Assembly (NCBI GenBank): GCA_964450115.1
Contig: CAYVCD010000002.1
Span: 1 to 53,652, forward strand
Reading direction: 5' to 3'
DNA: 53,652 nt
DNA from: an uncultured Planctomycetia bacterium
Lineage (GTDB): Bacteria; Omnitrophota; Gorgyraeia; 2-01-FULL-45-10
Each line of letters opens with the position of its first letter. Position 1 is the stretch's first letter. Shown piece after piece: positions 10,526-41,300 of the stretch. Made by a program: the position numbers and the translations under genes. The notes under the pieces are model-generated. The model made no database searches. It saw only the letters and a program-made list of their open reading frames with translations, and was not told where the DNA came from.

Positions 10526-10551
10526 CGGTATATATCCCTCGAATAATTCGC

Positions 10552-19990: not shown

Positions 19991-22900
19991 ATGAAACTTA
20001 GGTTCAATAAAACATATAGGATCATAGCCGCAATGCTTCTTGTGGCTTTCCTCGCCCAAGACATCTCTTGGGCTTATCCAAGTCAAGCTTCTAATAGCAA
20101 TCTTGCTGTGCCGGGCTTGCAAAATGCGAGTGTATTAAGCAGACTGAAGAAGGTTCTTGCAAACAAACTTTTCAAGAAGAAGGGCAAGAGCTTCAATAAT
20201 TCCGCAATAGATACTACTATCAAAAAGGATCCAATTCCGCAAAACCATCTTTCTGCAAATATAGTCCTTCCGCCAGACATATCGGCTGCGCTAAAAGATA
20301 TCGATGAAAAGAATGCAAAGCATATAATCGATATGATCCGCCGTATATATAGTCATGAAAAAATAGGCATCATGCGCCAGAACCACTGGCTGGAATATAT
20401 CACAGGGCTTTTAAGAGACCCAAGAACGCAATACAAGATCGTTGCGTCAAAGGCAGCGGCTTTAATATTTGAAGATTCTTATCATCTGGATAAGATGGAT
20501 GAGGGGTCTTTGAGAAAGGCCGAAGAGGCATTGCTCGCAGCGCTTAACGATACCAATTTGCAGGTTCGTCTGGCCGTGATATCTGCTATGCATAAACTAG
20601 TTGAGTCCAGGTATGATGTAAGGGTCTATACGTTGAAGCAGATGGCCGGGCGCTTTGATGAGCTGATCAGAAAATATCATAAGGTAGATGCTACTCTTGA
20701 AGATGCTGCGCTGCGTGCGATGATGGCTTTATCAAGCGAAAGAGATATTGAGTTGAGCAGTGCATACGCGGTCAGGGCGTTCGATGAGAGCCTTAAAGCG
20801 CAGGCGAAGACGCTTGGAAAGAATATCCGGACCTTCCTGAAGGAAGAGAGGCGTTCCGACTTCAGGATGAGGGGCTTAAGCCGCGTTCTGGATAGGTGCG
20901 TCGCGGATTCAGGGATGGGGCTTACTGCTTATATAAGAAGCGTCTATTTCATGAAATTCATAGAGAGTCTTTTCAGCGACGAAAAAACTGATATCGCAAA
21001 AATAAAAGAATATGTGCTAAAGCTGCCGCGCGGCTCCAGTAATATTGATGGGCGGATAATTGTCTATGATCCTATCTTAAAATTGGCGGATAAAGAATTA
21101 TCGGAGATGTATTTTACTTCCGGGCAGGATGTCAGGTCATTATTGTCGTGGCGGAAGGATTCAGAGCCCGTCCAAGCCTTCGATTTCTACGGAGAAGTAT
21201 TTATGACGCAAAGCCGAGTGAGATTTCTTGAGATGGCAGATAAAGGACTCGTCTATTACGATGCAAACCAGAAGCGGTTTGTCACAAACCCCGCCACATT
21301 CATAGATGTGGCCTCGGGAGAAACCTCCATGCCGGATTCCGACCGGATAACGGATGGCGATGCCCTATCTATGTATATAGCTGAGTTAGAGGCTATGGAA
21401 TGCTATATAATGTCAGACGCAAAAAGCCATGAAAAAAACTTCTTGAGGCCACTTTTCGAGCTTCTATTCAATAGGCTCGAGAAGGACTTTGAAGGTTCGG
21501 AAGATTTTATAACATATTGCAGAGAATTGATAAGAAGATGGCCCGAGGGTTCATATGAGATAAGAAAGGCCATGAACGATGAAGAGGCTATTCTGCTGGA
21601 AAAGTTCGGGAAGATAAAAAACTCTTACGCGACAAGGAATGCTTCCATACAGCTTTACGGAATTCTGCTCTTCTATCTGACCCTGAAGCCGCAGCCCTAC
21701 CTGGGGCATCTCTATGATGAGTATATGAAGAACAGTCCGCCGCATAATCTGTCTCTATATAGAACGGGCATATCCTATCATACCAGAGGGGATAATGTGA
21801 TCTATTTCTTCCCGAAGAATCTTTTATTTAATGGAACGAATGCCGATGCGCTTGGAAAGCAAAGGAGGGGCGAGGCGCCTTTTGAGGACGCCAGGAAATC
21901 CGAAAACGCCGCAAAGATACTGGAGGCGGTGAAGATATGGCGCCGCGAATGTCCTAACCTCGAAAACAGGATAAAGCGCTTTGAGAATAATAGCACCGTT
22001 TCCGAGCTTATAATGAAGACATCGCTCATATTTTCGGATCCTGTGCACAACGTCATCAGAGTAGTCCATGCCGGACGGGGGAGGCGTCTCTTGTTTCTAC
22101 CGAAAAATTATCTCGACAGCCTGAGAGTTGACAGCGAATACGATATGAAGGAGCTTGCCGTATGGCTTAATTTTGCCCAGCGTTATCTGGATATACATGA
22201 TCACATGTCCGGCAGGAAGGTGGCGGCGCATCAGGTTCAAAAGGTCCTTTCCGAGCTGGTCAGAAGGTCTTTTGAAAAAGAGGATACGCATCTTGTCGAG
22301 CCGGAGATACTTAAATACAGAATGTCGCAGTTGATGAAGCAGGACGAGCTTATAAAATATAAGGATGTCTTAATTTCGCTTGCCCTTGAAGAGGCCGAAG
22401 TGCAGGTAATGGAAAAAATATCGCGTCCGACCAAGGACGAGCTCATGATTCTTGAAAACGCATATGGCCGCATCGCGCATGGCTATGAAGTGCTTGGCAT
22501 GAAATCGAGATCTGAAAGAGCATACAATGGTATGGCGGACATAATAACCAAGATCCAGTCCACGGACCCATGGGCGCTGCCTTATGAATTGCAGGTAGAT
22601 CTCATACTTACTGCATTGAGGTTCGGGCGATGGGAAGATTTTATCAATGAGCTAAAGATACTTCTAACCGGCAAGGGGTATCCGAGGGACATAAGATGGA
22701 CCGAACTCTCTTACATTATGAAAGAGATAATTACACCGGCGTCGATGGGCCCCAGAAGCCTGGAGAGCACTATCATGCGCGCATTGGCGGCTCAGATAGC
22801 GGCGGCTGATCCCAGATCGGCCGAAGTTATTAAAGAAACGGCTGACCAGGCCAACGGGATGTTAAGTAAATATTTCAAAAATCCATTCGGCAACCTGGGT

Positions 22901-25900
22901 ATGGACGACATAACCGGGTGTCCGAGCCCAGAGGCTCTAGAAAGGCTAAAGAAAGGCGAAGACAATCCGAACAGTTTGATTGATGTAGAAAATAGACTGG
23001 TAAGAAAAGTTGCGGGCTTTGAGAGCTGCACCGATATAGGAAGGATGGATCCCTACTCCATCAGCATGACCACGAGGACCGCCAATACCCTGGAAGGAAT
23101 GGGGTATATACTTAATGAGTTCAGAAAGCCCGTAGGCGATGCAGGCATCTCTGATGCCGAAGTTGCGCTAATAAATAAAAGCGCGGTTGTAGTGAACATG
23201 ATGGATAAGAATGGGCATGAACAAAGCTGTCTTTTAAAGATCCTAAGTAGAGAAGATCCTGTTGAGAAAGCGGTGGAAAATTTCTTAAGAAACGACCTGA
23301 GCGTATACGAGGGTTTAGCGAAAAATAACGGTTGCAAAAATATAATATTGGTTCTTGGTAAAAAACATCCATCCTATCCGACAAATATAATAGTGCCTTC
23401 AGAGCGGGGAGAAGACATTCTTATAGTAAGCTATGGATCCGGTGAACAGCCCGAGCATATAAACGCAGCTTCGGCTGGAGATGCTGTCAAGAAGTCAGGG
23501 ATATCGGATCCTGATGCGCTAGAGGCTTTCTTAAAGATACAGAAAGAGGCTAGTCTGCAAAGCGTATATAAAGCCGCGGAATACTTTATAGGGATAGGCA
23601 CACCGGGAGCCGAAAGGTTATTGAAGATGGCCGTAACTAAGAAGGGCCATTTCCAAGAAGAATTTTTAGGCGAATTTATTGAAGCCAGGGCAGTAGAAGA
23701 CAATATAAGATATTCGAGAGTGATAGAGTTGGGCATGGAAAGGTTCGGAGCGGAAGTGGATTTTGTATTGGAGGTCGATAGGTCAAAATACCAGTCTAAT
23801 ACAAAAGGCGGCTTTGAGCTGGAAGATGGAGTTTATCTTGGCGAGTCTAAAACGTCAGATAAGTCCAACTCTCTTGAAAGGGTAATTGAGGGCGCGGTCT
23901 CGGATAAAGTGGAAAGATACCTGCGCGTCGCGCTGAATAAGCGGAAATCCGAATCCGGAAATCCGAACGCTCCTTTAATAAAGGGCATAATATTTGCCAT
24001 TGGCGGCGAAACAGTTCGGTCGGAGGGCGTTGTAGATTTTACTATTACCCGCCTAGAAGAAGGCGATAACCTGCGTTCCGATGGCATCGGAACATTCCTG
24101 GCGCTCATTCCCGATACGATAGTAGCCAGAGGGAGGGACAGATTAACATTCAAAGAGAGGTCTTTTATTTCCGATCTGCTTTCAGATTTAAAAGCGCGCG
24201 GAATGTTGGATAGCGCGCGCATCTCCTCTCTTGTCCCGATCTTGAAAGCCGCGCTGATGGAATACGGCCTTAGCCGCACACAGTTTATGATATCCGATGC
24301 TATAAAAGAAGCCGGTGCAGATCCGTATATAGGACAAACGCAGAATAAGGAGATATGGAACAGCGTATTTCGCGCTCTTGGCGCCAGGACAGGCATATCG
24401 CTTAATATGGATTTCCAGAGCCAGAAATTTCTCATTGACCGCGAAGCTTCGGTAAACGGCAGGACCGATCTTGAAATAAGCTACTGGCAATCCGGTTTGA
24501 GCGAATTCAAGAATACGAGGGGCAGAGCAAGATGTGAGTTCGAGATAGCCGGCCTGCCGGGCAGGTGGGTTCCGTTAATAGATGAGCATGATCAAGTAGT
24601 CATAGCGCATATATCCGACAGCGGTAGCCAAAAAGCCCTCAATGATTATTTTGTTTTCCGCCCTGATGTGACTTCAAAAGATTTATTGATAGACAAAGAG
24701 TTGGAGAGATTAGCCCTCGGGTCAGAGAGGCTGTTGTATTATGCGCGCAGCGGAGCAGATCCTGTGCCTGTGCGCATTCCGGTAACGGTGTCTTATGACG
24801 AAAAGCTTACTTCGAATGTTTTGATAGGGTATATAAAGGCTGCTATAGGCGGAAGCAGACTTTTATATTATTTTGGGCAGCAGATCATGAAGAGCCCGGC
24901 GCGTTGGGAGGCTTGGGGACTCGAGCCGGAATTAGGTAGTGCCGGCGCCATAAAGGCTGTGGCCAGGCCGTTTGGTATCTTAGGCGACAAAGACGAAGGC
25001 TCGTTGGTATTTGACAGGCATGAAAAAATGGCCAGGGTTTCGGATATCGTCGTTCTTGACAATAAGGGCAAATTCGGGATCGTGGCGGAGTTTGGTTTTC
25101 ATGATATGTTCCAATTGTACCATAAATATGCAAATAGCTTCATCTTCATGGCGCAGCATGGCAGTAAGATATCCGGTCAAAGCTCGCGTTTGCCGCAGAG
25201 CGTATTGTTGTACGCTGATGACATAGCTATAGGCGGTAAGAAAGCGGCCCGTGAGAGTCAGGGTATCTCCGCAAGGAAATTAATTCTTGAAAGACTCGAG
25301 CAAATACTTGATCGCGCATCAAGCTCTTACCAAAAAGAGCCAAATATGCTCATGCCTAGAACGGTCTATTTTATGCTGGGCGGCGCTCTTACCGCAGATA
25401 GGCCCGCTTATTTTAAACTTCCAGTAATAGCACAATTCCGATGGCACAAAAAAGAAGGCAAGTATATCCCGGTGAAGAGCGGCCTGAAGATACTGGAGGG
25501 TGAGGATAATCTGGAAGGCTTGTTCCAGGCAGCCTACTCTTATATCAAGCGTGCGGAAGGCTTAATTCCAGGGCCTCTTGCCAAGCCCGAAGCTACAGTT
25601 GCTCCTTCATTAGAAATACCGGGATCAGCGGATATATTATCAGCGGCATTGGTGCTGGGGTTGCGCATTGCGGATTCTGTACCAGGCACCGCCAATGCTA
25701 TCGATGACGTCGTTAATAGCAAGGCATTGGTGCTATTTGCAGATGATATTTTGGAGCGTGGTACAGCTGCCGACCTTGCCTATACATTAAGAGAGTCTTC
25801 GACTCTGAATAATTCCACGATCGTCCTGTACGGAAAGAGGCCGGGCAGAGCGGAATTGCTGGAGAAGATCATAAGCTCATCAGCTCAAGATAAGGGCATA

Positions 25901-26335
25901 AAGGTCGTGAAGATAGCTCCGGAGGACCTGCAATCTTTAAATGGCGGGAAAGATATAAATGTCGAATTCGCCGATGAGACAAAAGAGCTGGAGCTTCTCT
26001 TGAGGCACGTAAACTCTCGCTACCAAATAAATAACGGCATGCTCATGGGAGTCATTAAAGGCAGGACCGATGCTTTGTATGAATCCGGTATAAAGAACCT
26101 GGCCAAAGAAAAACATGTTCCTATAGTCTCCTTCGAGCATATAGAGTCCAACGATGTGGATAAGGAGATATACTCATTCAGAGAAGCCTTGTCGTTATTG
26201 ATCTCTATAACGAACGATACAACTCCCCTTAAAGACAGAGAGTGGTTTAAGCTGTTAAGGCCGATAGAAAAAGAAGATATCGATAGGATATATCAGGATT
26301 ACAGGCGTGCTCTAGAGGTGGCTATAAATGCGTAA
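19991..26335 (+). CDS. giant protein 2 (2,114 aa from ATG 19991), signal-peptide-like N-terminus, otherwise uncharacterised
   Basis: Uninterrupted frame. ATG 19991 gives MKLRFNKTYRIIAAMLLVAFLAQDISWA|YP. The track's TTG at 19943 lies inside the leader hairpin and is less likely. Only a HEAT-like repeat was recognised by eye (LLAALNDTNLQVRLAVISAMHKL, about 20521-20610). The stop overlaps the ORF3 start. Confidence 0.85.
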   Translation: MKLRFNKTYRIIAAMLLVAFLAQDISWAYPSQASNSNLAVPGLQNASVLSRLKKVLANKLFKKKGKSFNNSAIDTTIKKDPIPQNHLSANIVLPPDISAALKDIDEKNAKHIIDMIRRIYSHEKIGIMRQNHWLEYITGLLRDPRTQYKIVASKAAALIFEDSYHLDKMDEGSLRKAEEALLAALNDTNLQVRLAVISAMHKLVESRYDVRVYTLKQMAGRFDELIRKYHKVDATLEDAALRAMMALSSERDIELSSAYAVRAFDESLKAQAKTLGKNIRTFLKEERRSDFRMRGLSRVLDRCVADSGMGLTAYIRSVYFMKFIESLFSDEKTDIAKIKEYVLKLPRGSSNIDGRIIVYDPILKLADKELSEMYFTSGQDVRSLLSWRKDSEPVQAFDFYGEVFMTQSRVRFLEMADKGLVYYDANQKRFVTNPATFIDVASGETSMPDSDRITDGDALSMYIAELEAMECYIMSDAKSHEKNFLRPLFELLFNRLEKDFEGSEDFITYCRELIRRWPEGSYEIRKAMNDEEAILLEKFGKIKNSYATRNASIQLYGILLFYLTLKPQPYLGHLYDEYMKNSPPHNLSLYRTGISYHTRGDNVIYFFPKNLLFNGTNADALGKQRRGEAPFEDARKSENAAKILEAVKIWRRECPNLENRIKRFENNSTVSELIMKTSLIFSDPVHNVIRVVHAGRGRRLLFLPKNYLDSLRVDSEYDMKELAVWLNFAQRYLDIHDHMSGRKVAAHQVQKVLSELVRRSFEKEDTHLVEPEILKYRMSQLMKQDELIKYKDVLISLALEEAEVQVMEKISRPTKDELMILENAYGRIAHGYEVLGMKSRSERAYNGMADIITKIQSTDPWALPYELQVDLILTALRFGRWEDFINELKILLTGKGYPRDIRWTELSYIMKEIITPASMGPRSLESTIMRALAAQIAAADPRSAEVIKETADQANGMLSKYFKNPFGNLGMDDITGCPSPEALERLKKGEDNPNSLIDVENRLVRKVAGFESCTDIGRMDPYSISMTTRTANTLEGMGYILNEFRKPVGDAGISDAEVALINKSAVVVNMMDKNGHEQSCLLKILSREDPVEKAVENFLRNDLSVYEGLAKNNGCKNIILVLGKKHPSYPTNIIVPSERGEDILIVSYGSGEQPEHINAASAGDAVKKSGISDPDALEAFLKIQKEASLQSVYKAAEYFIGIGTPGAERLLKMAVTKKGHFQEEFLGEFIEARAVEDNIRYSRVIELGMERFGAEVDFVLEVDRSKYQSNTKGGFELEDGVYLGESKTSDKSNSLERVIEGAVSDKVERYLRVALNKRKSESGNPNAPLIKGIIFAIGGETVRSEGVVDFTITRLEEGDNLRSDGIGTFLALIPDTIVARGRDRLTFKERSFISDLLSDLKARGMLDSARISSLVPILKAALMEYGLSRTQFMISDAIKEAGADPYIGQTQNKEIWNSVFRALGARTGISLNMDFQSQKFLIDREASVNGRTDLEISYWQSGLSEFKNTRGRARCEFEIAGLPGRWVPLIDEHDQVVIAHISDSGSQKALNDYFVFRPDVTSKDLLIDKELERLALGSERLLYYARSGADPVPVRIPVTVSYDEKLTSNVLIGYIKAAIGGSRLLYYFGQQIMKSPARWEAWGLEPELGSAGAIKAVARPFGILGDKDEGSLVFDRHEKMARVSDIVVLDNKGKFGIVAEFGFHDMFQLYHKYANSFIFMAQHGSKISGQSSRLPQSVLLYADDIAIGGKKAARESQGISARKLILERLEQILDRASSSYQKEPNMLMPRTVYFMLGGALTADRPAYFKLPVIAQFRWHKKEGKYIPVKSGLKILEGEDNLEGLFQAAYSYIKRAEGLIPGPLAKPEATVAPSLEIPGSADILSAALVLGLRIADSVPGTANAIDDVVNSKALVLFADDILERGTAADLAYTLRESSTLNNSTIVLYGKRPGRAELLEKIISSSAQDKGIKVVKIAPEDLQSLNGGKDINVEFADETKELELLLRHVNSRYQINNGMLMGVIKGRTDALYESGIKNLAKEKHVPIVSFEHIESNDVDKEIYSFREALSLLISITNDTTPLKDREWFKLLRPIEKEDIDRIYQDYRRALEVAINA

Positions 26336-29300
26336 TAAATATTTAAGTTTAAAGCCCGGGCTAAATGGGTTGAGGGAAGCTTCCCCCCGAGTAGCGACTC
26401 TTATCCCAACCCGGGCTTTTCTAATGAAGATAATGGCAACGATCTTGATCGCGGCGTTCATCGCGCAGGATATCGCGTGGGCGAATCCCGAGATAGGCCA
26501 GGGTGTGCCTTCAAAGAGCTCGCTGCAGATACCGCTGATGTTGGGTCCGATGCGCGCCGGTGATGTCGGCATGCTTATGGAAGCGAAGGTCCAGCAGATA
26601 ATACGCTCGATACCGTTAGAGGAGCTTAAAGAGCGCAAATATAAATTGCCGATCGAAGAGAGGGGCATAAGATTTCAAATAACCTTCAGCGTAGATTCGA
26701 GCGAAAGGCTTGTGGCGAACTGCACGGCACCTGGAAAAAATCCGGTCAAACGAAAGTTTGTCATTAAAGACGACCTCACGTTCGCCACTGAGAACGAAGA
26801 GACGCCGAAAGAAGCATCATCGCTTCCGAAGTTCAGCGAAGCGCTTGCGAAGATGGATGCGCACATGAGGGAGAGCGCTTTTGAAAGGGCTAGGAGCGAT
26901 AACTATGAATATCATTTTGATGAAAATTCGCCTCAATTCCTGCTTCATGCCATCTTCATATATTTCGGAGACACTCCAGTCAATGACTTAAGCGCTATAG
27001 ATATATACCTGACCGTTATGGCCGGACAGAGTGACCAAAAGGTGAACCTTGCTCAGTCTTTTAATTTATTAAGGGGCATTATCCGCACCATACATAAGGA
27101 TGGCGAACTCTTACCTCCGCGTGAAACATTCAATAAAATGAGCCCTGAATCAATCAATGCCGTAATTGAAAAGATGCTCGCATTAAGAGAGAGCCATCTT
27201 AAGATCATCGATGAGTCGGAATCCAAATTTAAGGAGCTCATCCCTGACGTAGAATTTGCGTACGATTATCTGGACTATTTCAGAGGTCGTGTTGTCGAAT
27301 TTTATGATGAGCTCGCGGCAAGATACGCGGCGCTACTTGCGGCGAAGCACGCCAAAAAGGGGAAATCGGGCAAAAGCGAATATCTAGGCATGCTCGGAGC
27401 GGGGTTATTGCAAAAGCTATATGATAAGGTCGCCGATCACTTAATAACGCGATATGTAATTTATCTTCTCAGATGGCAGTTAAGCTCACCCTTGATAGCT
27501 CCTCTCGTAATATATTTTGGCGGGGGTTTTGCAGCTGTTGTATTGACCAATATAATAGGCGGTATTGTATTCTTCTGGCTCGATAAACTTATATTGAAGG
27601 AGCCGGGCAAATTATTCTCCGGCTGGAAAGATTTTGCCGGGGAATATCTTTTATATCTGGCAAGGTGGCAGCTGACTACTCCACTGATATGGATATTTAC
27701 ATATTATATGGGCACGGGCCTGTCATCAGCCATATATGCCAATATAATAGGTGGACTGATATTCTTCTGGGTCGATAGACGGATCTTGCGTCCTTCAGAG
27801 AGTTCGAAAAAGAGAGAAGACAGTCTACGAAGATCCGGCTCAGGATCTGTTCACGAACGCCATCTCTCCGATGTGCCGACCCCCGGAGCAGAGCCGATAT
27901 CCGATAGCCCCGCGGAATTGCTCAGGTACAAGCTCGACCAGGAAGCGCTGTGGAAGAGCGTGAATGATCCGCTTGCCGAAAGGAAGCGCGGCCCGCCTGA
28001 TAGGCGCGTCAATCTTGGCGGACCTGCAAAAAAATCTTCACATCCTACGATCACGCCGGTAATGCGCAAACGCGGTCAATTGATACGTAAGGTCAAGACA
28101 AGGCTGCATCTTTTAGGCCTAAGGCCTCTTGCTGTAAATGTTGTAGACGAGATCGCACGGATGGCGTCTAAGGACCCTTCCATAGAGAAGCTTAGTTTTT
28201 ATATGGTAATTAATGCCGCAAAAGCCAACCATATCAAATTGCAGTCCAGAACAATAGATAAGGACAAAAGGATTGCCGAGATAATAAGGCTGGCCAGAGT
28301 ATTTTACAGAGATAACGGGAGAAAGCCCACAGCCAGAGAGACTGTCGCCCTTATTAACAAAGAGGATCCTTACGCTGGCTGTACTTATTACAATTTTATG
28401 AAGTGGGTGGAAAAGAATGCTATAGCATACGATAAACTCGGGGTGTTTAAGCAGCATGCCGGATTGGGTGGTTTCGTGGACGAGGCCATTAAAAAGGCAA
28501 AAGAGATAGCCGGACAGACCGGTAGTAAAAAAATAAGACTGGCCGATCTGAGAGAAAAGCTTAAATTAAAACCGCCGGCGTTTGCAAACCGCGTAAGAAG
28601 TTTGAAAGAAAGTAGCGGTGTGGATTTATACGACGAGCTCAGTAAGGCCGGGTTCGAAATCATGCGAGGAGCATCCGCCAGCACGCCTCCGGCAAAGGAT
28701 GCAGGCAGGCCATCCACGCGTTCCGCTAAGCGTCCCGACAAAAATAAACCCCTGTATATTCCGATAGCGGTAGTCAAGACCCTGATCAGGCGTGCGCTTA
28801 GAAACGACGTCGTTCCCGATCAGTACCGCGCTACGATGTCAGCCGGCCCGAAAGGGCTTGACCGTCAGCGGGTAGAAAATTCTATAAAAGAATACGAAGC
28901 TCTTATGGATTTTAAGAGCGCAGATCACAGCCGGATAGATGCGGCAATAGATACCTTAAATGCGCTTAGCAGGATGGATTCTAAATATTATACATTGAGT
29001 TTATTGAGAAGAGCGGCCAGCGTTCTGGATTATGAAGATAAATATAGATTAAAGGCTATGAAGAACGCCGCGAGGCGACTATTCGGATCCATCCCTGATA
29101 ACCTCGTATTTATTTCCTCATCACCAGCAATTAACAGCAAGAAAAACGGCTCAGAGCCGGAAAGTGAAAAAATAATATCGGATCAGGTCGGGAGACTGAT
29201 CAATACCGCGGGCCAGTTCCCCAGGCTGACTGCGATCGGTGAGGTGAAATTGAGCGTCCTGTACGGGTTGGGTGACAAAAGTGCGGGAGATACGCTGGCG

Positions 29301-32300
29301 ACATCCAATTTACGTCTGGTGATCTCAATAGCTAAGAAACATAGAGGGCCGCGCCTTCAGTTCCAGGATCTTATACAGGAAGGGAATATAGGCTTATTAA
29401 CGGCTGTCAGCAGGTTCAAGCCTCAGAAAGGATACAAATTTTCCACATATGCGACATACTGGATCAGGCAGGCGATACAGAGATATGTTGAAGATAATAA
29501 GAATCATATAAGAATACCATCCTTTAGATATGACAGGGTGAATAAATTCCGCAAAATTTGTGAAAAAAAGCAGATAGATCCTTTTGATAAGAAAATGGAT
29601 CCGTCACAAATAGCTAAGGCGATCGGGTGGAAGGTGACCGAAGTAAAAAGAATGTTAGAAATATTATCGCTTATGTCAACAGCGTCTTTAGACTCTGCTC
29701 CCGATGGTAAAAATAAGCATGACATAGAATTTTCCTACGCAGCCAATACCGTTCAAAATGATCAAGGTCCTGGTATTCTTGAGCGGCAGGATGTGATCGA
29801 TGCCATTGTAAAGAATACTATAGAGCTGATAAGACAGAGGTCCAGGGAGAATAAAGAAAGAGATGCATCGGTATTTATATTGAGGATTCTCCCGGTCTTA
29901 TTGGGTACCGGCAAGAGCGTGCCGACCCTGAAAGAGATGAGCATGCGTTTTAAAATTTCGAAAGAGAGGGTTCGCCAGATTGTTAATAAATGCCAAACTG
30001 CTCTTGAGGATGCGTTGGCCTACATGGGCTTAAAAGTAGAAGATCTCGGTATGACCAAGAGACGTTCTGTAGCGAGCGACAAGGGTGAGCCGAAAGAATA
30101 TCACGGGCCGAGTGCCGGAAGAACGTCACCGATACGTTTACGCAGTCGCAATCTTCCCAGTGCTCCGGCTCGAGTGAAGCCGCGATTCAAAGGGTCGCCC
30201 TATGCCGTATTTCTTAATCTTAAAAAAGGTTCAGCATCGGTAGAGGAACTGCTCGGGATGATAAGCGGCGGAATAAAGAGCGCCCAGACGATAGAAGATG
30301 ACTTGAGAATATTACGCAGGGCCGGCGTAGTGGCTTCGTTAAGAGTAAAGTCGAGAGGCCCTGTCTTTAGAATATACGGGAAAATCGGTAAAACAAAGTT
30401 GGCAAGCATAGAATCGTTGCTGGAAGGATCTTACAGTCCGGGTAATATTACAAAAAATAGCCGCGGGACAGGCAGACAATTTGTAATAAGAAAATTACGC
30501 GAAATAGTCCTTTTTGATCCCGCAAGAACCGCCAGACAGTCGCCTGAGGAAATAGGCCGGGAAGCAAGAACGCTCCTGCTCAAGGAAAGCCTTGAGAGCC
30601 TCGAGGCCACTATCATGGCGTCTATGGTAGATGGCAAGGAAAGAACGGACCTTGTAAAGCTGATACGCGCTCGTATAAAAGGGGTCATTTCAGGACCATC
30701 TCCGGCCCGGGCCGAATGGGATGAAACAAGATGGACCGGTTCGGACACGCTCCCCAAGCGCCATTCGCTCGCCATACCCGGCGCGGAAGATGATATTATT
30801 AATACTTTTACGATAGGAAAGGGGCCGAGAAGATTAGCTGAGGGCGGAGCTATCCACTGTAATTATCTCTTCGCATACGATCCTGCGTCAAAGATAGGCG
30901 CTGCGGCGCATATCAGTTTAATAGATATGGACCCATTAAATGATAAAGATGTGGAGAGCGTTTCTAAAGGTATCAGAACTTTGGTAGAGACATTACAGCA
31001 TGCGGGAGCTAACGCGGCAGAACTGCGATTCACCATAGTGAGAAAAAAGGACGTCGCTCCTATCGAAGAGCTGTCTTTGCGGACCGAGGCTATGCTGGTC
31101 AATGCTTTTGGTAAGCTTGGGTTAATAAATTTTAATAGATCCCTAGTCGATAATGACTCGATGGTATTTTTGGATCTCGCAACCGGGGGCATATCACAAG
31201 AGGATAGGTCAGTAACCAATACCAAAATATCTGCTGATATTCTCAAGGCTATCGAATCGGATATCGCCGGTTTCGGATTGCGCACCTGTCTTGCCAAATC
31301 AGCGTTGCTTATATATATTTTGCGATCTTTAGGTGAAGAGGCAACGCTCATCGGCATGTTTCGCAAGGATGAAGACATGCCTTTTCAGTATTTGGTGCGT
31401 ACCGTTAGATGGGGGGACAGGGATATATCTCCTTTTGGTGGGGAGGCCGATGATTACGAGCGTACGGTCCCGGTACCTGAAACAGATTACGAAAGAGGCT
31501 TGTCATCTTTAAGAGAAGGAGGGTATCTTGCAAGAGCCGACCTGGAAATTTTAAACGCTTATAAAAAGGTGGTCCCAAATGCATTTGACATAGATGATGG
31601 CACGCTGATCTATGCTTTTGATTATGACGGAACTCTAGCGGATGCCACCGGACGCATGCAGGATGAAATTTCCGCGAGCTTGATCGCGCGCCTTAAGGCG
31701 GGTAAGAAGGTGGTTATGATAACAGGCAGGAACACCGCTTCACTGCATCATTATTTCTCATCCTATATACCTTTAGAGACACTTAAGCGGTACCATAAAA
31801 ATATTATATTTATGGCGGAATTGGGAACCGAAGTCGGGCGCTTCAACGAAGATGGAGAGCTATATGTAGACCGGAAGAACAGTATGCCTCTCGATAGCGC
31901 GAAAAAACGCCAAATAGACGCGGTCTGTTATGAGGTGCTCCAGAAGCGCGGGCTGCACAATATAGGTGGAATAAATACAAGGATACTCCCTCATACCAAT
32001 CCGGGAGAATATCCCAAAGGCAAATCTATTGAAATAGGTTTGGAAAAATACGGGACTGTCACCATCCGGTTCTGGGAAGAGTCTTTAATGCATCATATGC
32101 CCGGGGTCGTCGAGGACCTGAGGCAGGGGTTAGTAGATATCGGATTTTATGTTGCGGCATCAAATGCAGCTATAGATATATCACCGATCGACAAGGCCGA
32201 CGCTGTGAAGAAGCTATTATCGATTATTAAAGACGAAGATGGCGAAGATATACCGCTTTCGAGTGTAGCAGTGTGTGGTGATAGCCAAAACGATTACGCT

Positions 32301-35300
32301 ATGCTGGGTATGAGTGTTGTCAAAGCAATATATGTAGGAAATAAAGAAAAGAAGGACCTGCCTGCCGCCGTTGCGGCAAACGTGCATATTCCTGCGAAGC
32401 GCGGTCCGGACGGGGTATTGGAGATATTAAGGAGTGGGTCGTTCTCTGCGCCCACGCAGGGTGGCGAACCCGCCGCCATGTCGAAGCCGGAGCCGGAAGC
32501 GCAGATCGCGCGCGGCGTCAATACGACAAAATTGTCCGAAGAACTTGTTGCCGAACGGAAGTTGATCTACGATATCCATAGCCGATGGCCGGCGGCGGTC
32601 ACGGTATTCGGGAGCGCGAGGATCCCGGAGAGCGATCCGTCATTCGTTAAGGCAAAGGAGCTGGGAGTCGCATTATACCGGGCAGGCCTTTCGATAAGGA
32701 CAGGCGCCGGTCCGTCTATGATGGAAGCGCCTTTCATGGGCTATCTCGAAGAACGGGAAAGATCCGGCGCGGCCAAGGAGCTATGGAACACGACCCAGGG
32801 CATACGCATAGAAGGCCTGCAGATCGAGCAGCATACGACCAAGTTTGTTGAGGATAACTACAGCTTTGATCATTTTGTCACAAGAAAGATGGGCCTTTAT
32901 AATAACTGCCGCGGCATAGTGGTGTTTCCCGGGGGATTCGGAACGGTGGACGAACTTATTGAAGTATGGTTCAGGAAGATACCGATGGTATTGATCGGCA
33001 AGAGTTACTGGCAGCCTATCATAGACGCCATTTACCGAAGCTGGGCGGCAAAAGGATGGATGGAGTTGATCGAAGAGAAGCCGCTGATCACGGATTCGAT
33101 CGAAGAGGCAGTGGCTCATATCCGTTCGTCCAAAAAAGATCTTATGATAGAGTCAAGGGAAGATATGGAAGCGGCGAATGAGGATATAAGGTCCTCTCTT
33201 GTGACCCTCGAAACCTGGCAGCCGGCTGTTACCGTTATGGGTCAATCGGAGCTCTTAGATAATGTAGAAGCGGACGTGTTGACCGAGATGACGAAAGAAC
33301 TGCTCGCAAAAGGGATACCTGTGCGCTCGGCGACCGCGAACCATTACCTGAAAGTGACTCTGGAGAATGCCGCAGGGGACAAAAAAGATATGCTCCAGGC
33401 AGTACTGGCCGTTCCAAAGGAGAGCGCGCTAGTCCCGGGGCCGAATCGCATAGTTACCCATAATCTATCTAATCATCACGTTCTGGTAACCGAGAATTCG
33501 CGCGCTTTCGTCATTCTGCCCGGCCGCGCGAAGACACTCAGCCGTCTCTTTGACCTGGTAACGGTGATGCAGACAAAAAAAGTCAAGACCAGGCCCATCA
33601 TATTAGTAGGCAGTAAATTTTGGCAGCCGATAAAAGACGCGATCAAGGATGCGGCTCTCGAATATCCCTCAGGGCAGCTCATAAATCCGGAAGACGCTGA
33701 TTTGCTTCAAATAGTCGACACCGCCGAAGAAGCTCTTCGGATCATCAACATTGTAGATGCAGGTAGCATAGTTAGGGATGCGACCCGAATCGCGCGCCCT
33801 GGCGACATGCCGCCCGGCCCGAGAAATCCACGCGACAGATTCTTTAAACAGCCGCCGGATGAAGTATCGGAAGCGGCTACCAATAAGACGTATAAACCCG
33901 TGTCGCCTATCGGTGAAGACGATATTGTTACAGCGTTTAAGAAGGGATGGGAATACATCTGGATGCGCAGCACCAGAAAGGCAAAAGGCCGGTTCCTGCG
34001 GGAGGCCGCCAAAGCGCTGAAAAGAGAGCCGGGAGTATTAATAGTTAATGATTTAACATATGGGCTAAAGCGGATATGGGGGCACTCTGCGAGCGGGCTT
34101 ATAATATGGACAATGAAAAAATTCCGTATTAAGAATCCGACGGCTGCAATGAAGGCATTAAAGCGATATGTCGGTATAAAGGCAGTGCCGTGGACTAGAT
34201 ACGGGCAGCCTATCGGTGAAGACGATATTGTTACGGCGTTTAAGAAGAGATGGAAACACATCTGGGTGCGCAGCACCAGAAAGGCAAAAGGCCGGTTCCT
34301 GCGGGAGGCCGCCAAAGCGCTGAAAAAAGAGCCTGGAGCATTGACTGAACCCGATTTAAGGAATGGATTAAAGCGTGCATGGGGACGCTCTGCGAATGGG
34401 CTCACCAATTGGGCGAGAGAAGAATTTGATGTTCGGAGTTCAAAAGCGATTATGGAAGAATTGATGCGGTATGCCGGTATAGAACCAACGTCTCAGTCTA
34501 GACGTGTGATTGTAGAAGATATCACAGAAAAGACAATTTTACAGCATCTTAAGAAAAGGACCCGGAATATATGGTTAAGAAGCAACAGAGATGCCAAGAG
34601 AATGGCAGTCCTTTTACTTGCCAGAGAGCGGAACAAAGAGCCCAGAAAATTAAATGCGAAAGATTTTATTACTCCGATCCCATTATTTGGAAATCGTAGT
34701 ATAGGCGGAATTATACATTGGGCGCGCCACCACTTAGGTGTACAGGCGGGTGCTATGAGCAGTTATTTGCAAGCTATCCTTGACCTTAAAGAGTACCTTG
34801 GGATAGAAGATACTATTGTGCCGAAGAAGAGATGGGAAGCCAAGGTGGAGGCAGACTGGGGTGAGGTATGCGTCATACTGGATAAGTATGAGCATCTGAA
34901 AACCACGGAAGCAAATGTCCGCACGATCCTTAAAGGATGCCGTTTTAATAATAAGGAAACCGATCTGGCTATGGGACGGGAAGTTCAAAGAGGGAATCCA
35001 GCCGCTAGGGAAGCCATGATGATAGTTTATGAGACCGCCCTCGACTATCCGGCGGCAGGATTCAATAGAAGATATCCCGATATCAGTGTCGATGAATTCA
35101 AGTCCGCCGGCAGGATCGCTCTTGCCGGATGCGTTGAGCGCTATGATCCGGAAAGGGGTTTCGTATTCATAACGTTCATAGGCTACAGGAGCGACAGTAA
35201 GCGCGTCTTCGGACGCATCTCGGGTGCGATGGTCGATCTTGTCAGGAAAGTCCATGGCACCAGGCGAAAGGGGAAGGTGCGCGAAGTCCAGGGCGGAGCC

Positions 35301-38300
35301 CTTAAAGACTCTAAAGGTAAGGATGTGCCCTATATGGGCGAGGTCGCGGAAGGTGATGTCGCCAGAAGAAAACGTACCGAAAAAATGGCGGAACTATCCC
35401 AGGGGATCGCCGACCAAATAGGGGCAATACTTTCTAAGTCGCTTAAAAGTAGAAATAAGGAAAGAAATATAGAAATATTTATAGCAAATATTTCCGGTAA
35501 GCCACAATGGGAAATAGCGCGGCAATTTAATTTGACTGATTCCCGCGTTAGTCAGATCGTGAGCCAGTGCCGCCAGATCCTGCGAAACTCCAAAGATATA
35601 TTAGCTTCGAATGTTGTAGCATCCGGCGAGAGGATCGCGCGCCCTGGCGATATGCCGCCCGGCCCGAGAAATCCACGCGACAGATTCTTTAAACAGTCGC
35701 CGGATGAATACGGAGTGCCTTCAGCTAGAATGACCCCAGATAAGGATACCTGGCAGAATACGGATCCGCATCGCGAATACAGCCCGGCATTCAGCGAGAG
35801 CATCGTCTTGGCATTCGATAATTTGAAGCGGGACGGGGCGATACAAGAGACGCCTCTTATCTACATGCCGGCTCTAAGCAGGATGGCCGGGAAGAAGGTT
35901 TATCTGAAGGATGAATCACATCAACACGGCGGCTCGTTCAAGATACGAGGCGTGGCGTGGAGGATAAACGAGGCGATAGCGGAGCATATTAAAGGAATGG
36001 TCGAAGACCCGTCACTATGCGAAAAGCCGTTTTATATCGTTACGCAGACCGACGGAAATCACGGTGTCGCCACTATTGAGGCCACCAGGCTTTTGATAGA
36101 AAAATATAAAATGATCTATCCGGGTATCGCATCCGGCATTAATAAGATAGAGCCGATAGTATTCGGTATTAAGAATATGCCGGAAGTAAAAAAAGAGCTC
36201 ATGGCGAAAGCCCTCTCGGCTTACCGCAAGAGCGTTGGGCTTGCCGACCGGGGCATGGAGGACCTTGAATTTGCGAATTATGCCAAAGCCAAAGAAGCAA
36301 GGGAAGCATTTATCGCCGTAAATAAAGAGAGGTCCGCATACATAGAGCATGGAGGCGAAAGGATAATGGCGGGTCATGCAACGGCGGGTCTAGAGATAGA
36401 CGGGCAGCTTAAGATGCTCGGAATAGGCGACGACCGGAAGGTGGCGGTGCTCGTACCCGTCGGCGAAGGCGGCCCGGTGGGAATAGGCGCAGGAATAAAA
36501 TTAAATAGAAAGAATGCCAAAGCAGTGATAGTGCAGACGAGCGCATACCCGGCATTTGTGCGCACATTGCAAACAGGGGAGCTGGTATCCAATGAGCCCA
36601 ACCCGGCTCCGACAATTGTTTTAAAAGGTAAAAATATCGTATTTGAGGACGGCATAGCGGTCGATAAGCCCGCACCGGAAGCGGTCTCTGTAGCAGGGTC
36701 CGTCATAGACGCGGCCGTAGTTGTCGACTCAAGGTCCAGCCTTGACAGGGCCGCTCCTATATTATTGCGCGATCTGCGCGAGGCTACAAAAAATAATACG
36801 GCCGTAATAGGCGGCACCACATCAGCGACAGCAGAGGCGCTTATCCAATATCATGAGAGCCTGGCCGCGCTTAAAGAGGCGGATGTCATTGTGCTCTTTG
36901 GCACTGAAGGCAATGTCGATCCCGATCTTGTCGAATACATAGAATCGCGCATGAGAGAATCAGGGCCGTCACCGTATATGGAAAAGAATCATGATGCGTT
37001 AGCAAACGTCCAGATCATTCCGGCCAAAGAGAGTAAATATAAGACTTTCATTTTTGATCTTGGTAATGTGTTGCGCCTTTTTGATAATTCACGTATGGCG
37101 GCCGGTCTTAAGCCATATACGCATTTTAGCGAAGCGCAGATTCTAGAGAGACTTAAATCGTCCGAGGCAAAGCGCTTGTCCAGTATAGGCAGGATAGGTA
37201 ATGCAGATTTTATCAAGGCAATCAAAGAAGACCTTCAACTTAAAGACATAGACGATGAGACTTTCGTCAGGATCTATAATGATATTTACACTGATATCCC
37301 CCAGATGTTTGAACTCCTAAAGAAGCTTAAAACCGCCGGATACAGGATCGCGATACTTTCAGATATTACAAAAATACATTACGAATATACGCTGGCTACT
37401 TTGCCTGTAAGGCAGTATCTGGACGGATTCTTTGCATCATGCGAGCTCGGCGTTACCAAGCCGAACAGGGAAGCGTATTTGAAAGTCCTGTCCGCGCTTG
37501 ATGTAAGGCCCGAAGAGACGGTATTTATAGATGATACGCCTGCCAATGCTGATGGCGCAAAAAAACTCAATATTGCGGGAGTGCGGTTTGAAAACTTTAA
37601 AGTTCTGCTAGATGAATTATTTAAATTGGGTATTGCCAGCGATATGAAGGCGATTAAGTTGCGAAAATTGGCAGTGACAGGGGACGATCCAGAAGGTGCC
37701 GCCCCGCAAGCTCAAAACGATGAGGTGTCCCCAAATGGACCGTCCCCGGATACGGATGCTTCCAGCGCTACGGATAGGATGACAAAAGAGAGCAAGGTCC
37801 CTGAGAGGCACAGGCCGTCTTTTGGTCATCTGGTCTGGCTTAGAATAAGAAATATTTTTGAAAGAATCAAAGGCAGAAAGATAAACTATGTATCCGTATT
37901 AAAGGGCCTGCGAAAGTATGGCCCTAAGCATATTTTACTAATTACCGATTTTCGTGATGAGAAGAGAAGGATCGGAGATCTGATTCTATTTTATACCACG
38001 TTTGTGAAAGTTCTGCTTGGCCTCTATCCGGATTCAGACGTTACTATTGTGACAAGTCAGCCTGAGCTCTGGAGCAAGACTAATGGTAGGTTGAAGATTA
38101 TTCCGCAGGAAATGCTTATCAATATTGCGAGAAAAGATTCAGCTGGCATGCAGGCCGAATTGAAAAAGGTTAAGGAAGGGTTAGGGATAGATTTAATGAT
38201 AAACCTTGATAGGCATGACATGCCTGCTTTCAGGCAGGCAGCAAAAGAGGTCTTTCCGATAAGTTTCTTTGCCAATGCTGGCAAAGGGGCTTTGTTGAAT

Positions 38301-41300
38301 ACTCCGGATTTTGAAGAAGATTTGCCTCTCTTGCCATGGACGGACACATTTTGTAAGCAACTTAATATTGCCGGACAGGGACTTGATTTTGAAAGAGAAG
38401 CATTGGGATCGCATCAGTCAGACAAAAGAGATATATTATTCGATGTTACGCCCAAGGACAGGGAATGGCTGCGTTCGATTTTAGGCTTAGGCAATAATCC
38501 CATTCTATTACTTAATATATTCTCTATGAGGGAATGGAAGGACTGGCGGAACGCCGATGAAATAGCATATTTTATAACGACGCTTGTCAAAGAAAAGAAG
38601 ATGAAGGTTGTTATGCCGGCTCCCAGAAGCGCCGAACAACAGCAGCTTCTTATAAAAATATCCAAGCTGATACCGGCCGAGTTCAAAAAAGGTTTAATAA
38701 TCCCGGATCGCGGTTCACTGCAAACCTTGAAACTTATGATCGATGCGTCCGACTACGTGGTGACCGTCGATACGGGAGTAAGCCATCTCGCGGCCGCTTT
38801 AGGAAAAGAGCCGATAGTCCTATATTACCGCAGTTTTCGCAACAGGACATATTTTATTACGCTTCCGTGGCTGCCGTTTGCCACAAAAAAAAGCAAGTCC
38901 TATCTGACTTCAGCGATCCCTTCGGCATATCCGGCGGGAAAGATACTGGAGAAGATAGATTCGCAAATGCTTCGAAAGCAGGCTGTGAAGGAAGCGGTCA
39001 TGGTAAATGGCTGTGAAGTCATAACTAATGGCAAGAGTGAAGACCTTAAGTTAGAAATAAAAGGAGCGCTTGGCCTTAGAATAGAATATGACAGCGTTAG
39101 TGACGCGCTTGCGATAACGCGATCAGGACAAGTTCCATATTCAATTATTTTAAATGTCAAACCCGCGATCGATCAGAAAGAAAAAGGCGAAAGATTGTGG
39201 GCATATCATAGGACGAAGACAAAAAACTTTTCTTATCTTGACGAGAATAAGTCTAATGTGGAATTTTCCGATAGAGCATATGATAATCTCGTATTTGCTG
39301 AATCCGGGTCAGTATATTTGCATGCAGTTGCCGGCCTAAGCGTCATAAAGACCAAAGACGGCATTAAGATATACGGCGGGAACTATTTTAACGAGGCTGC
39401 GGACAGGATAACTGATCTACTGAAAGGTAAACAGCTCATCTATAGGAGGCCGGCGCATATATTGGAAAGGGTAAGAGAAAAGACCACCGAAAACGGCGTA
39501 AGGGATATTGTGGCCCGCTATTACGGTTTTGAAATATTGAGAGTGAGCGAAATTACAGGAGGCAGGGCGCAGGGTACGGTATTTCTCATAGAGACAAAAG
39601 ATTCGCGCAAGTATGTTTTCAAATTTTTAGGCAGAGATATAAAAGCTGCCGAAAGGCTTGTCCAAATATCGGGCAGTCTTAAAGAGTTCTTCCCGGCTCC
39701 CATAAAGGTAGCTATGCGTGATGAGCGCATTGTGAATGATGTTTTAATAAATGTAAACGGTGAGTTTGCCGCATTGGAGGAATATATCGAATCGCAGCGA
39801 ACAGGATCATACGATAGAGAATATTATTACAGCCTGGGCAGGAGGATGGCGGAATTCCATGAGCGCGGGAAGGCCTTGATCGATATGATCGGACCCGGTA
39901 GCGGCGGCTCTCTGCGGGGTTCCAATGCTATTTCAGCAGCCATGGTAAAGATGGAGCTTGTCATAGCCAGAAACAGCCTTTTGGTCAAAGCAGGCTTATT
40001 GAATAAGCCTGAGGAATATTTCCTTAAGATAAGTGATTCTCTGATAAATGAGTCGGAAAATATGTTGAATATAGATATAGAAAAGATCTTGCAAAATTCA
40101 CCACACAGACTTTTACACAACGATCTGTCAAGGGCAAATGTTTTGAAGGATGATTCCGGCAAATTGCGCTTCATCGATCTTGAAACATCAGGCGTTGGCA
40201 ATCGCGTACTTGATTTTACTCTGGCAATAATTGGCAACGCCGCATATAAGCCCCTAGAGTACGTGCCCGGAAGCCTTCAAGAGCTCATCACGGGGTATAA
40301 TTCGTACTCCGACGTACCGCTGACGGAAGATGAGGTTTTGGCGATAAAATGGCATATTATTCACAGGTTCCTTCTACAATTTATGGTAGATACAATTAAG
40401 AATCCGATAGAAAGAGACGGTCATCTTGACAAATTGTACAATGCATTTAAATCATACTGCGAGGAGTGTCCAATAAGCAAAGCAGGCGGTTCAAAAGTCC
40501 GTAAAGAAGGCATGATGCTGGATGCTGATGCGTCTTTGCAAAAGTTCGGCAATGATGATCAGCTTACTGAAGTACCGCCTAAAAGGGTGCCATTTGCCGT
40601 GAATTATCCCTTGGATATTTTTGAGGAAGAGACACCGGTAGGCTTGTCGGTATTTGATAATCAGGATGTGCTAAAACAGAGACTCAATGATAATATATAT
40701 TATTCTCAGGCACCACCCGACAGAAGAGAGAGGATATTTCAACGCATATTATTCCTGAAGAATGTTCTGCCATCCATCAATAAGTATTTCGCCGCAAATC
40801 ACCCCGAGCTTGAGATAATAAACATATCACTTTTTGGTTCATATGGCTATGCAGACGACGATGCTTCTCCTTCCGATATCGATTTTCTTGTCACTGTGCG
40901 CGGAAACATATTTGCGTTGGAGGAGATACAGATAGACCCTCAGCGGGATGACTTTTCAAAGTATCTTCCCTCATCAGTTAAGTCATTGGGATTCTCTATA
41001 AAGGGGGACGAGAACTTGCGCACCGGCGCTATAGATAAAACCACGTCGGTCAGGCCGCAGATGCAAAGGATCGTGCTGGACCGCACCGTTACAACATTGC
41101 GCGCGCGCCATATCGTTATATCAGGGCCAAATTTCAGGGAAGGACGGGACCTGATAAAGAGGAATGGATTATCGCATGTATCTGACTTGCTGTTTAATGC
41201 GTATATACGCCTGTTCGCAATAGATACTTTAAGAGGCGGATCGGAGGCGCAACGTCTGCGTAAGGTGCTTGCAAGGCTTTATGACGCGGCCATATATATG

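Follow-up and report, generated by a model that had tools for sequence, protein, structure and literature searches.

Giant ORF and embedded sigma modules

The window analysed here is the whole 53,652-nt stretch of contig CAYVCD010000002.1 from an uncultured Omnitrophota bacterium. It contains a giant open reading frame (ORF), g3, which runs uninterrupted at 26328..51566 on the forward strand (as do the window genes and modules located below) and encodes 8,412 amino acids (aa). Its ATG at 26328 overlaps the stop codon of the upstream gene g2 and has a GAGGTGG Shine-Dalgarno sequence 7 nt on its 5' side; Met33 (nt 26424) is an alternative start suggested by comparison with the protein family described below. 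A genetic-code artefact was considered as the source of the long ORF and rejected: no stop-reassigning code can close a frame that code 11 leaves open. The initial annotation had described three sigma-70 modules in this one chain, behind a signal-like N-terminus and transmembrane (TM) hairpins, and our analysis confirmed this anatomy. We refer to the modules as M1, M2 and M3.

M1 (aa ~950-1235; 29175..30032) is RpoD-like and comprises regions 1.2, 2.1-2.4, 3 and 4.1-4.2. It had been described as having essentially canonical regions 2.1-2.4 and a region 4.2 helix-turn-helix (HTH), and this was borne out: the region 2 string quoted for it is present, and M1 strongly passes the thresholds of Pfam Sigma70_r2 (PF04542; 72.7 bits, cut-off 24) and TIGR02937 (86.7 bits, cut-off 42.9). 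Positions 3-224 of the 238 in the NCBIfam model RpoD_Cterm (TIGR02393) are matched at 154.6 bits, short of the equivalog cut-off of 354. Sigma70_r4 (PF04545) scores 16.8 bits, under its cut-off of 24.1. Region 4 is covered by the RpoD_Cterm alignment and by the alignment to solved SigA/RpoD structures in the PDB, both end to end; the latter spans regions 1.2 to 4.2 and reaches 121 bits with 7l7b_F. Aligned with RpoD proteins, region 2.2 of M1 reads DLIQEGN and retains all four core-binding residues (D403, Q406, E407 and N409; we take the residue numbers of the M1 motifs to be those of E. coli sigma70). In the melting/-10 segment Y425, F427, Y430, W434, R436 and Q437 are retained, with W433 changed to Y and T440 to Q; IRIP is kept, and region 4.2 reads SKERVRQI, with E585, R586, R588 and Q589 retained and R584 changed to K. 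Because the core-binding, -10 and -35 motifs are retained, M1 looks competent for core binding and for housekeeping-type -10/-35 recognition, as far as its residues can tell. An orthologue was sought by a protein search and a metagenome scan, and the closest relatives found were only ordinary, free-standing RpoD proteins at <=38% identity. We also considered M1 as the housekeeping (primary) sigma factor itself and rejected this (TIGR02393 154.6 bits against 354, ~38% identity, region 1.1 absent). Because M1 shares only ~38% identity with any RpoD and has no region 1.1, its alignment beginning at region 1.2, it is a diverged, paralogue-like RpoD-type module and not the primary sigma.

M2 (aa ~2876-3095; 34953..35612) has a FliA-like arrangement of sigma2, a short linker and sigma4, and M3 (aa ~7771-7985) is a diverged sigma2-sigma4 module that together with a pre-sigma region occupies aa ~7640-7985 (49245..50282). 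When aligned to sigma-70 models, M3 stands with M1 above the TIGR02937 cut-off (54.6 bits) and also passes PF04545 (30.3 bits against 24.1), with Sigma70_r2 at 18.6 bits, under the cut-off of 24. M2 stays below: TIGR02937 gives 35.6 bits (E-value 6.5e-9), Sigma70_r4 20.5 bits, and PF04542 does not match. M2 resembles FliA/sigma28, with the FliA-type segments RISGAMVDLVR and TDSRVSQI present, and it is supported despite its sub-threshold scores by a conserved cassette (see below) and by Foldseek. Both M2 and M3 had been said to retain the region 2 core pattern. This stands as regards fold and the DPxRGxxF(S/I)T motif, and fails for the core-binding residues: the region 2.2 motif of M2 is not conserved (EFKSAGRIAL, 0-1 of 4 residues), and region 2.2-2.4 of M3 is diverged (ELMAWCNKVL, with N retained and D changed to E, and WWIRQ lost). 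Region 3 is missing from both modules. AlphaFold (AF2) models show confident sigma2 and sigma4 blocks with a disordered linker between them (mean predicted local distance difference test, pLDDT, 64.6 for M2 and 75.0 for M3), and Foldseek with these models returned essentially sigma factors only. The models were built on sigma-factor alignments and are biased to that fold, and for this reason we take the AF2/Foldseek evidence as supportive only. All three modules are genuine sigma-70-family domains.

Apart from the sigma modules, g3 begins with a signal-like N-terminus at aa 33-52, ending in IAAFIAQDIAWA before NPE (by hydropathy only). The leader can be written as a Sec-type signal-like segment, MKIMATILIAAFIAQDIAWA before NPE and then SLQIPLM, with an n-region, an h-region and a (V/A)-W-A site in front of N. 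The family-conserved leader plus N-domain (aa 33-160; 26424..26807) aligns with >35 family members. Two tandem hydrophobic helical hairpins follow at aa ~375-486 (27450..27785), and besides the leader they are the sole hydrophobic segments of g3; all topology statements on g3 rest on hydropathy, a crude stand-in for a topology predictor. Arranged as a tandem duplication, the hairpins share the motif Y[LV][IL]YL[LA]RWQL[ST][ST]PLI ... NIIGG[IL][VI]FFW[LV]D[KR]. A similar hairpin end (FLDFWYFRKI) is seen in the related protein P0132, directly followed by an element resembling linker B (described later).

Scanned in overlapping pieces against Pfam, g3 is a mosaic of at least 12 distinct families. 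The enzyme modules include three HAD-type hydrolases, two LOG (Lysine_decarbox) domains, one PALP enzyme dependent on pyridoxal phosphate (PLP), a GT9 glycosyltransferase, an APH-type kinase, a methyltransferase and, weakly, a nucleotidyltransferase. Two HTH arrays, five winged-HTH repeats (45825..46697) and five XRE-type HTH domains (46950..48152; HTH_31 150 bits, HTH_3 127.5 bits), occupy separate linker-delimited segments, and XRE arrays are also present in the related proteins P0175 (with an M2-type sigma) and P0126. On the 5' side of M2 lie three ~100-aa repeats with no function assigned (33885..34817), collinear with repeats of P0135. The domain at aa ~8011-8178 (50358..50861) has no model match, shows by eye a VIKV motif and what may be a G-rich loop of the kinase type, and has relatives in P0183, P0190, P0202, P0206, P0207 and P0210. 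The chain ends with a C-terminal domain (CTD; aa 8187-8412; 50886..51563), scoring 246.8 bits to our local CTD hidden Markov model (HMM). A search of the ~4,100 aa of unannotated g3 sequence for a protease or other domain found none, and an NCBIfam scan of the leader, the hairpins, the aa 8011-8178 domain and the CTD gave zero matches.

Protein family, locus and cargo turnover

We defined the family from one exhaustive HMMER search with g3 aa 7608-8412 as query, which gave 359 matches. The CTD, the last ~225 residues, is found in 101 of the best 150 of the 359 matches, and in 98 of these 101 proteins it ends <=3 aa from the C-terminus. The CTD-bearing proteins span 239 to 7,288 aa, with a hypervariable cargo of 0.2-7 thousand aa (kaa) between the ends. 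Most full-length members share the N-terminus MK..IIA..LIAAF.AQD[IV].WANP[DE]I...[ST]LQ[IV]PS and ~60 further alignable residues; g3 aa 33-75 could be aligned with the leaders of >35 members. Neither terminus was matched in Pfam, NCBIfam or PDB-sequence searches, including zero matches for the CTD profile against PDB sequences, and the traceable members are Omnitrophota or environmental sequences. g3, which has both termini, thus belongs to a previously uncharacterised Omnitrophota family with a conserved leader/N-domain, a swappable middle and a conserved CTD. Near-invariant positions of the CTD include S38, S42, Y152-Y153-P154, E157, K165 and R221 (numbered by the first row of CTD alignment A6); the domain almost always ends in [FL][IL]x[SA]A-COOH, and its secondary-structure patterns suggest an alpha/beta fold. 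Two features of the searches bear on these counts: sigma-bearing proteins without the CTD are an enriched, over-represented sample because the query included M3, and word-indexed searches overlooked distant relatives (the linker B profile is one case, and a query with aa 1-3130 missed even known RpoD matches).

The case of g3 is not a singleton: other large proteins of Omnitrophota also have sigma modules embedded in them. Using a local sigma HMM together with Pfam, we found a sigma module in at least 5-6 of the 101 CTD-retrieved proteins. Sigma-bearing proteins from the search include P0163 (2,744 aa, two sigma modules), P0266 (2,795 aa, two sigma modules and HATPase_c), P0231 (6,375 aa, one module at 194 bits), P0139 (4,599 aa; leader, radical SAM, methyltransferase, sigma, CTD), P0135 (7,288 aa; leader, M2-type cassette, CTD), P0121 (1,668 aa, partial; nitroreductase, GNAT, sigma r2-r3-r4, CTD) and P0175 (835 aa; M2-type sigma, three XRE HTH domains, CTD), and further carriers are P0172, P0188, P0203, P0208 and P0237. 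The source of P0121 is the Omnitrophota entry MDP3791023.1; g3 and P0121 share 74% identity in the CTD. A large number of the embedded modules are near-canonical, with motifs such as NLRLVxSIAK, DLxxEGNxGL, FSTYATWWIRQ, IRIPVH and TRERVRQIE. The M2-type cassette is common to g3, P0135 (38% identity) and P0175 (35%), with identity concentrated in the sigma-functional segments; in P0135, where a ~1,100-aa block is collinear with g3 aa 2500-3600, a TM hairpin stands directly after the M2-type sigma. The M3 unit of pre-sigma region and sigma2 matches internal parts of P0163, P0266, P0231, P0203, P0208 and P0237. Judging from these comparisons, sigma modules are recurrent cargo of the leader-cargo-CTD family, and probably interchangeable.

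Two side observations concern the sigma carriers. P0163, P0203, P0236 and P0266, all without CTD, begin with a different signal-like leader ending in A[LY][AG]LAPWL[SA]SQ, which suggests a second leader class tied to sigma cargo. P0139 is labelled 'RNA polymerase sigma factor' in IMG, and its locus lies among pyr and pur genes; on its contig (JGI 3300038439, Ga0394675_011649, our L161; 4651-22986) it stands between two genes with carbamoyl-phosphate-synthase large-subunit domains, an arrangement suggestive of insertion of the giant into carB, inside one of its parts or between them.

The window locus can be compared with two related contigs. L162 has the order ftsK-rodZ-miaB-pgsA-pgpA, a 1,902-aa protein without Pfam match, P0128 (3,141 aa), thpR, cinA and recA; L163 starts at P0121 and shows the downstream side of the slot only (P0121-phd/parE-thpR-cinA-recA). 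Flanking genes of the window share 66-82% identity with L162/L163, and the CTD shares 64-75%. Between g3 and P0128 the N-domain is 43% identical over 129 aa, and the tandem LOG pair (aa ~2068-2498; window 32400-33800) is the only common cargo block, at 52% identity. The rest of the g3 cargo, including all sigma modules, has zero detectable similarity to the positional orthologues in L162/L163. g3 thus sits in a fixed slot (pgpA-[g2]-[g3]-thpR-cinA) in which the ends match housekeeping genes in conservation and the middle has been exchanged. Taken jointly, the two structural conclusions, real sigma modules in g3 and their place as cargo of a leader-cargo-CTD family with cargo turnover, are ones that we hold with high confidence.

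The upstream partner g2 (19991..26335; ~2,114 aa) has a family-type leader, no Pfam match and no CTD; its positional orthologue is the 1,902-aa protein of L162 (36% identity over ~520 aa). A sigma-70-type promoter-like site with a TG extension (TTGCCT-16-TATAAT; 19779..19806) lies 5' of g2, and no promoter-like site was found between g2 and g3; from this arrangement the two genes are probably co-transcribed and translationally coupled, and g2 may be a partner or chaperone of g3. A third giant ORF, g1 (1779-10475; 2,898 aa), carries class-I aldolase and phosphofructokinase (PFK) domains, the class-I fructose-bisphosphate aldolase at 299.8 bits. It consists of a signal-like leader, ~1,700 aa without Pfam match, and then Pro/Ala-rich linkers joining the aldolase and the phosphofructokinase. 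With glycolytic enzymes placed after a leader of the export type, g1 presents the paradox of sidedness that the sigma modules present in g3. All three giants start with a similar signal-peptide-like segment; those of g1 and g2 are weaker versions of the family leader, and the CTD is found in g3 only. g1 fills the ribF-rpsO spacer and is absent there in L001, a contig whose rpsO DNA is ~93% identical, which indicates that giant genes are gained and lost between near relatives. Both g1 insertion junctions (1640-1700 and 10500-10560) carry T[AC]G[CT]TTTACA, the -35-like box of the L001 rpsO promoter, which might reflect duplication of the promoter or of a target site.

Other neighbours in the window are common housekeeping genes of bacteria: truB, ribF, rpsO, pnp, uppP, ftsK, rodZ, miaB, pgsA and pgpA, with thpR and cinA on the other strand. 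The PNPase shares 92% identity with that of an Omnitrophota metagenome-assembled genome and 63-64% with those of other Omnitrophota; neither it nor g2 was on record as an exact sequence. The junction between the giant gene and cinA-recA collects small accessory genes in both the window and L163: the window has an ORF6N-domain gene (52775-53284) where L162 has recA, and L163 has the phd/parE toxin-antitoxin pair and a 23S_rRNA_IVP-type gene (5064-5608 and 6783-7151). A mobile-element origin is not supported: the window has no tRNA, integrase or transposase, and codon usage is like that of host genes, a weak test in which out-of-frame controls correlate too.

Linkers, sidedness and possible roles of the cargo

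Fragment-wise self-comparison of g3 revealed two kinds of internal linker. Linker A occurs twice, as RIARPGDMPPGPRNPRDRFFKQPPDE (aa 2487-2513; 33786..33866) and RIARPGDMPPGPRNPRDRFFKQSPDE (aa 3102-3128; 35631..35711), and its copies flank a segment made up of M2 and the three repeats before it. Linker B is present three times (aa ~5679-5727, 43362..43508, ending in PEPGSPEEAYQRQVNLPGIGAPSRHSLRFRQSDD; aa 6799-6849, 46722..46874; aa 7565-7613, 49020..49166), and its third copy opens the terminal segment that contains M3. In this way the linkers delimit M2 and M3 units of 615 and 805 aa. Both linkers end in F[RK]Q[SP], with 5 occurrences in g3 vs 0.14 expected, and the invariant 12-aa core of linker B differs among its three copies by 5 synonymous and 0 non-synonymous changes, which hints at selection on the peptide. 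The linker B profile had no match among 5.8 billion proteins, in a word-indexed search that had missed diverged copies in the family members P0127 and P0132; these linker B-like elements have the tail FHHSD/FHHGG. Linker A is private to the g3 gene. A 3C-like cleavage site between Gln and Ser, as F[RK]Q[SP] might suggest, was considered and dropped as a specific proposal, given the FHHSD/FHHGG of the relatives and the restriction of linker A to the g3 gene. Cleavage at linkers A/B is put forward here as a hypothesis only.

It is possible that the sigma modules have no role as sigma factors at all, the giant being a fusion sink that accretes ordinary gene copies, with the modules as passengers, RNA polymerase (RNAP)-binding decoys or spacers. 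The loss of region 2.2 core-binding residues in M2 and M3, the loss of the melting aromatics in M3 and the position of M2 below curated cut-offs would all fit such a sink, and so would the heterogeneous cargo (HAD x3, LOG x2, PALP, GT9, APH, nucleotidyltransferase, methyltransferase), the 80% of Omnitrophota giants that are sequence singletons (10.64898/2026.06.07.730766), and the host-like codon usage, which is consistent with local gene capture. Selection, however, is needed to keep a 25-kb ORF free of stops, and every functional position checked in M1 is intact. Three proteins keep the M2-type cassette, with its identity in sigma-functional segments; many embedded modules of other giants are near-canonical; and the linker core has changed synonymously only. 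We consider a mere accretion of passengers or decoys distinctly unlikely.

If the modules do work as sigma factors, the cargo must work in a cytoplasm, because a sigma factor acts only where bacterial core RNAP is. The topology of g3 is ambiguous in this respect: the leader together with an even number of TM helices predicts that the cargo is outside, and the strongly basic segment that follows the last hairpin (RRILRPSESSKKREDSLRR) agrees, under the positive-inside rule, with a cargo in the cytoplasm. Our tentative preference, which we would put at somewhat short of an even chance, is that the polypeptide is exported and its modules act in the cytoplasm of a partner bacterium, by a multi-effector logic like that of MARTX toxins. 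Here the conserved ends would serve for export, anchoring or delivery, and the middle would be a reshuffled assortment of enzymes of cytoplasmic type and regulators of transcription. After export the hydrophobic hairpins would engage the membrane of a partner bacterium (host or prey), and the modules would act in its cytoplasm, possibly after cleavage at the linkers: M1 might compete for or capture the partner's core RNAP, and M2, M3 and the two HTH arrays might redirect or block its transcription. We rank delivery first, slightly above a self-directed, membrane-tethered function, because the leader predicts export and because the cargo turnover resembles the effector arrays of MARTX and polymorphic toxins, in a host-dependent phylum. 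Delivery into another cell was one of three options raised in the initial annotation, next to proteolytic release and a possible sequestration of sigma-binding partners, and it has gained indirect support from the conserved ends and variable cargo at a fixed locus. The more specific proposal, that sigma factors and multi-HTH arrays enter a partner bacterium and take over or shut down its RNAP, is on balance unlikely. If it is true, sigma factors would here be seen for the first time as effectors between bacteria, in a cellular counterpart to phage-encoded sigma factors and to the polymerase injected by N4, and their leader/CTD-dependent delivery would follow a route not recognised before.

Several points count against delivery. 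Besides the basic stretch after the last hairpin, no secretion, pilus or translocation machinery was found in the window. M1 carries housekeeping-type promoter-recognition residues, which would not suffice by themselves to reprogram a target. The F[RK]Q[SP] tail is not kept in relatives, which weakens the candidate cleavage sites, and no protease domain was detected in g3 or its neighbours. Also, the sole cultured relative is reportedly a predator of an archaeon, where sigma-70 modules would be useless.

Some of the same observations speak for a function inside the producer, which we regard as a serious though less probable competitor. Held by the leader and hairpins in the inner membrane of the producer, the chain would expose its cargo to the cytoplasm, and the sigma modules would be kept inactive or localised at the membrane until freed by regulated proteolysis at the linkers; as a variant, the whole chain might be a membrane-bound scaffold that recruits RNAP and, through the HTH arrays, DNA. 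The producer's own RNAP is the only partner certain to be compatible, M1 keeps canonical -10/-35 recognition residues and the operon itself has a canonical promoter, and the cargo enzymes need ATP, S-adenosylmethionine or PLP. The basic cluster after the last TM segment, the TM hairpin directly after the M2-type sigma in P0135 and the bracketing of M2 and M3 by linkers fit as well, and there are precedents for membrane-linked sigma factors (PMC6242693; ECF263, 10.1101/2019.12.11.873521). Tethering is opposed by the family-conserved, signal-peptide-like leader with its AxA-type site and the even TM number, which predict the opposite sidedness, and wholesale replacement of the cargo at a fixed locus would be unusual for a self-regulatory device. 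Two findings count against release by proteolysis, the tethered pro-sigma option of the initial annotation: neither a site-1 nor a site-2 protease, nor any other, turned up within the gene or beside it, and in relatives the candidate linker motif is conserved only in part, without its tail.

Comparison with known systems

Giant proteins of Omnitrophota have been described in two preprints. West-Roberts et al. 2023 distinguished Archaeovorin and Dockerin types, proposed extracellular attack and speculated on cleavage (10.1101/2023.11.21.568195); Nielsen & Lui 2026 added a 'multi-enzyme metabolic cluster' class and kept four hypotheses open (10.64898/2026.06.07.730766). According to the latter, 94% of Omnitrophota giants have a signal peptide (SP) or TM segment and 80% are sequence singletons. 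From the two preprints, the giants are mostly flanked by secretion genes and the lifestyle is host-dependent (10.64898/2026.06.07.730766; 10.1101/2023.11.21.568195). The texts of the two preprints do not mention 'sigma', 'HTH', 'transcription' or conserved termini. Giant multi-enzyme Omnitrophota proteins are therefore already described; the sigma cargo, the conserved termini and the locus-fixed cargo turnover are not.

These giants are regarded as a puzzle, for which current hypotheses centre on extracellular cell-wall attack, and g3 could in principle be a cell-wall-degrading or adhesion giant of the Archaeovorin/Dockerin type, given the same phylum, the signal-like leader and the literature reading for many giants. 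We consider this highly improbable. Archaeovorin/Dockerin giants have Dockerin/TSP3 repeats, SecA_DEAD, C39/S8 peptidase domains and many TM segments, none of which was detected in g3; lectin and carbohydrate-active enzyme (CAZyme) domains were not found in it either, no secretion or pilus genes flank the locus, and the cargo is made up of cytoplasm-type enzymes alongside the sigma factors and HTH arrays. The multi-enzyme giants are closer, and g3 would fit among them. Like g3 they combine many Pfam families per chain (methyltransferase, HAD, kinase-type, glycosyltransferase); they have SP and TM segments, which for g3 are predicted by hydropathy, they are mostly sequence-unique, and cleavage has been suggested for giants. 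Unlike them, g3 with 8,412 aa is under their 10-kaa catalogue threshold (which is operational, not biological) and lacks secretion, pilus or CAZyme flanks.

As for the sigma modules, M1 shares with group 1/2 factors (RpoD/RpoS) regions 1.2-4.2 and the DLIQEGN, FSTYATxWIRQ, IRIP and ERVRQI motifs, and M2 shares with the group 3 factor FliA the xMxDxxR and SRVSQI motifs. RpoD and FliA are free-standing, whereas none of M1, M2 and M3 is. A fusion is found in MzaA of the MZA anti-phage system (NF041931), which carries a sigma-70 C-terminal half on a large non-sigma N-terminal part. MzaA gives the best NCBIfam E-value for M1 (162.5 bits against an 800-bit cut-off), no better than generic RpoD models; only the sigma part is aligned (model positions 475-697), and g3 has no defence-system context. 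Sigma-70-family domains coupled to a membrane or a pro-sequence are known from pro-sigmaK/SpoIVFB of B. subtilis (PMC6242693) and from extracytoplasmic function (ECF) sigma factors with TM-helix extensions such as ECF263 (10.1101/2019.12.11.873521); their activity is presumably controlled by release. These are normal-size single sigma factors with a short pro-sequence or one extension, whereas g3 has three sigma types among ~8,000 residues of unrelated enzymes that follow an export-type leader, and a cognate protease was not found in the window.

The leader and the CTD provide two sequence handles for cataloguing the family and its cargo by HMM, and the fixed locus with swapped cargo is a natural experiment in domain shuffling. 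Because sigma/HTH cargo recurs behind an export-type leader, a choice is forced between a tethered polyprotein and delivery into another bacterium. If the modules bind RNAP, sigma-factor biology would be extended to a new architectural, possibly inter-cellular context. For delivery a model is given by the MARTX toxins, in which effectors vary through gene exchange between ends that stay conserved (PMC5218395, PMC5555677). Unlike g3, MARTX toxins have RTX glycine-rich repeats at both ends and an inositol-phosphate-activated cysteine protease domain (neither was found by Pfam in the whole of g3), and g3 has a Sec-type leader in place of a type I secretion signal and of type I secretion system genes, none of which lie in the window; its targets would be prokaryotic, and its cargo includes sigma factors and HTH arrays. 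MARTX modules act in the target cytoplasm after processing, which for g3 is a proposal only. What g3 and Vibrio RtxA have in common is the design logic alone: a very large chain with conserved ends and strain-variable, unrelated modules between them (PMC5218395, PMC4453568, PMC5555677).

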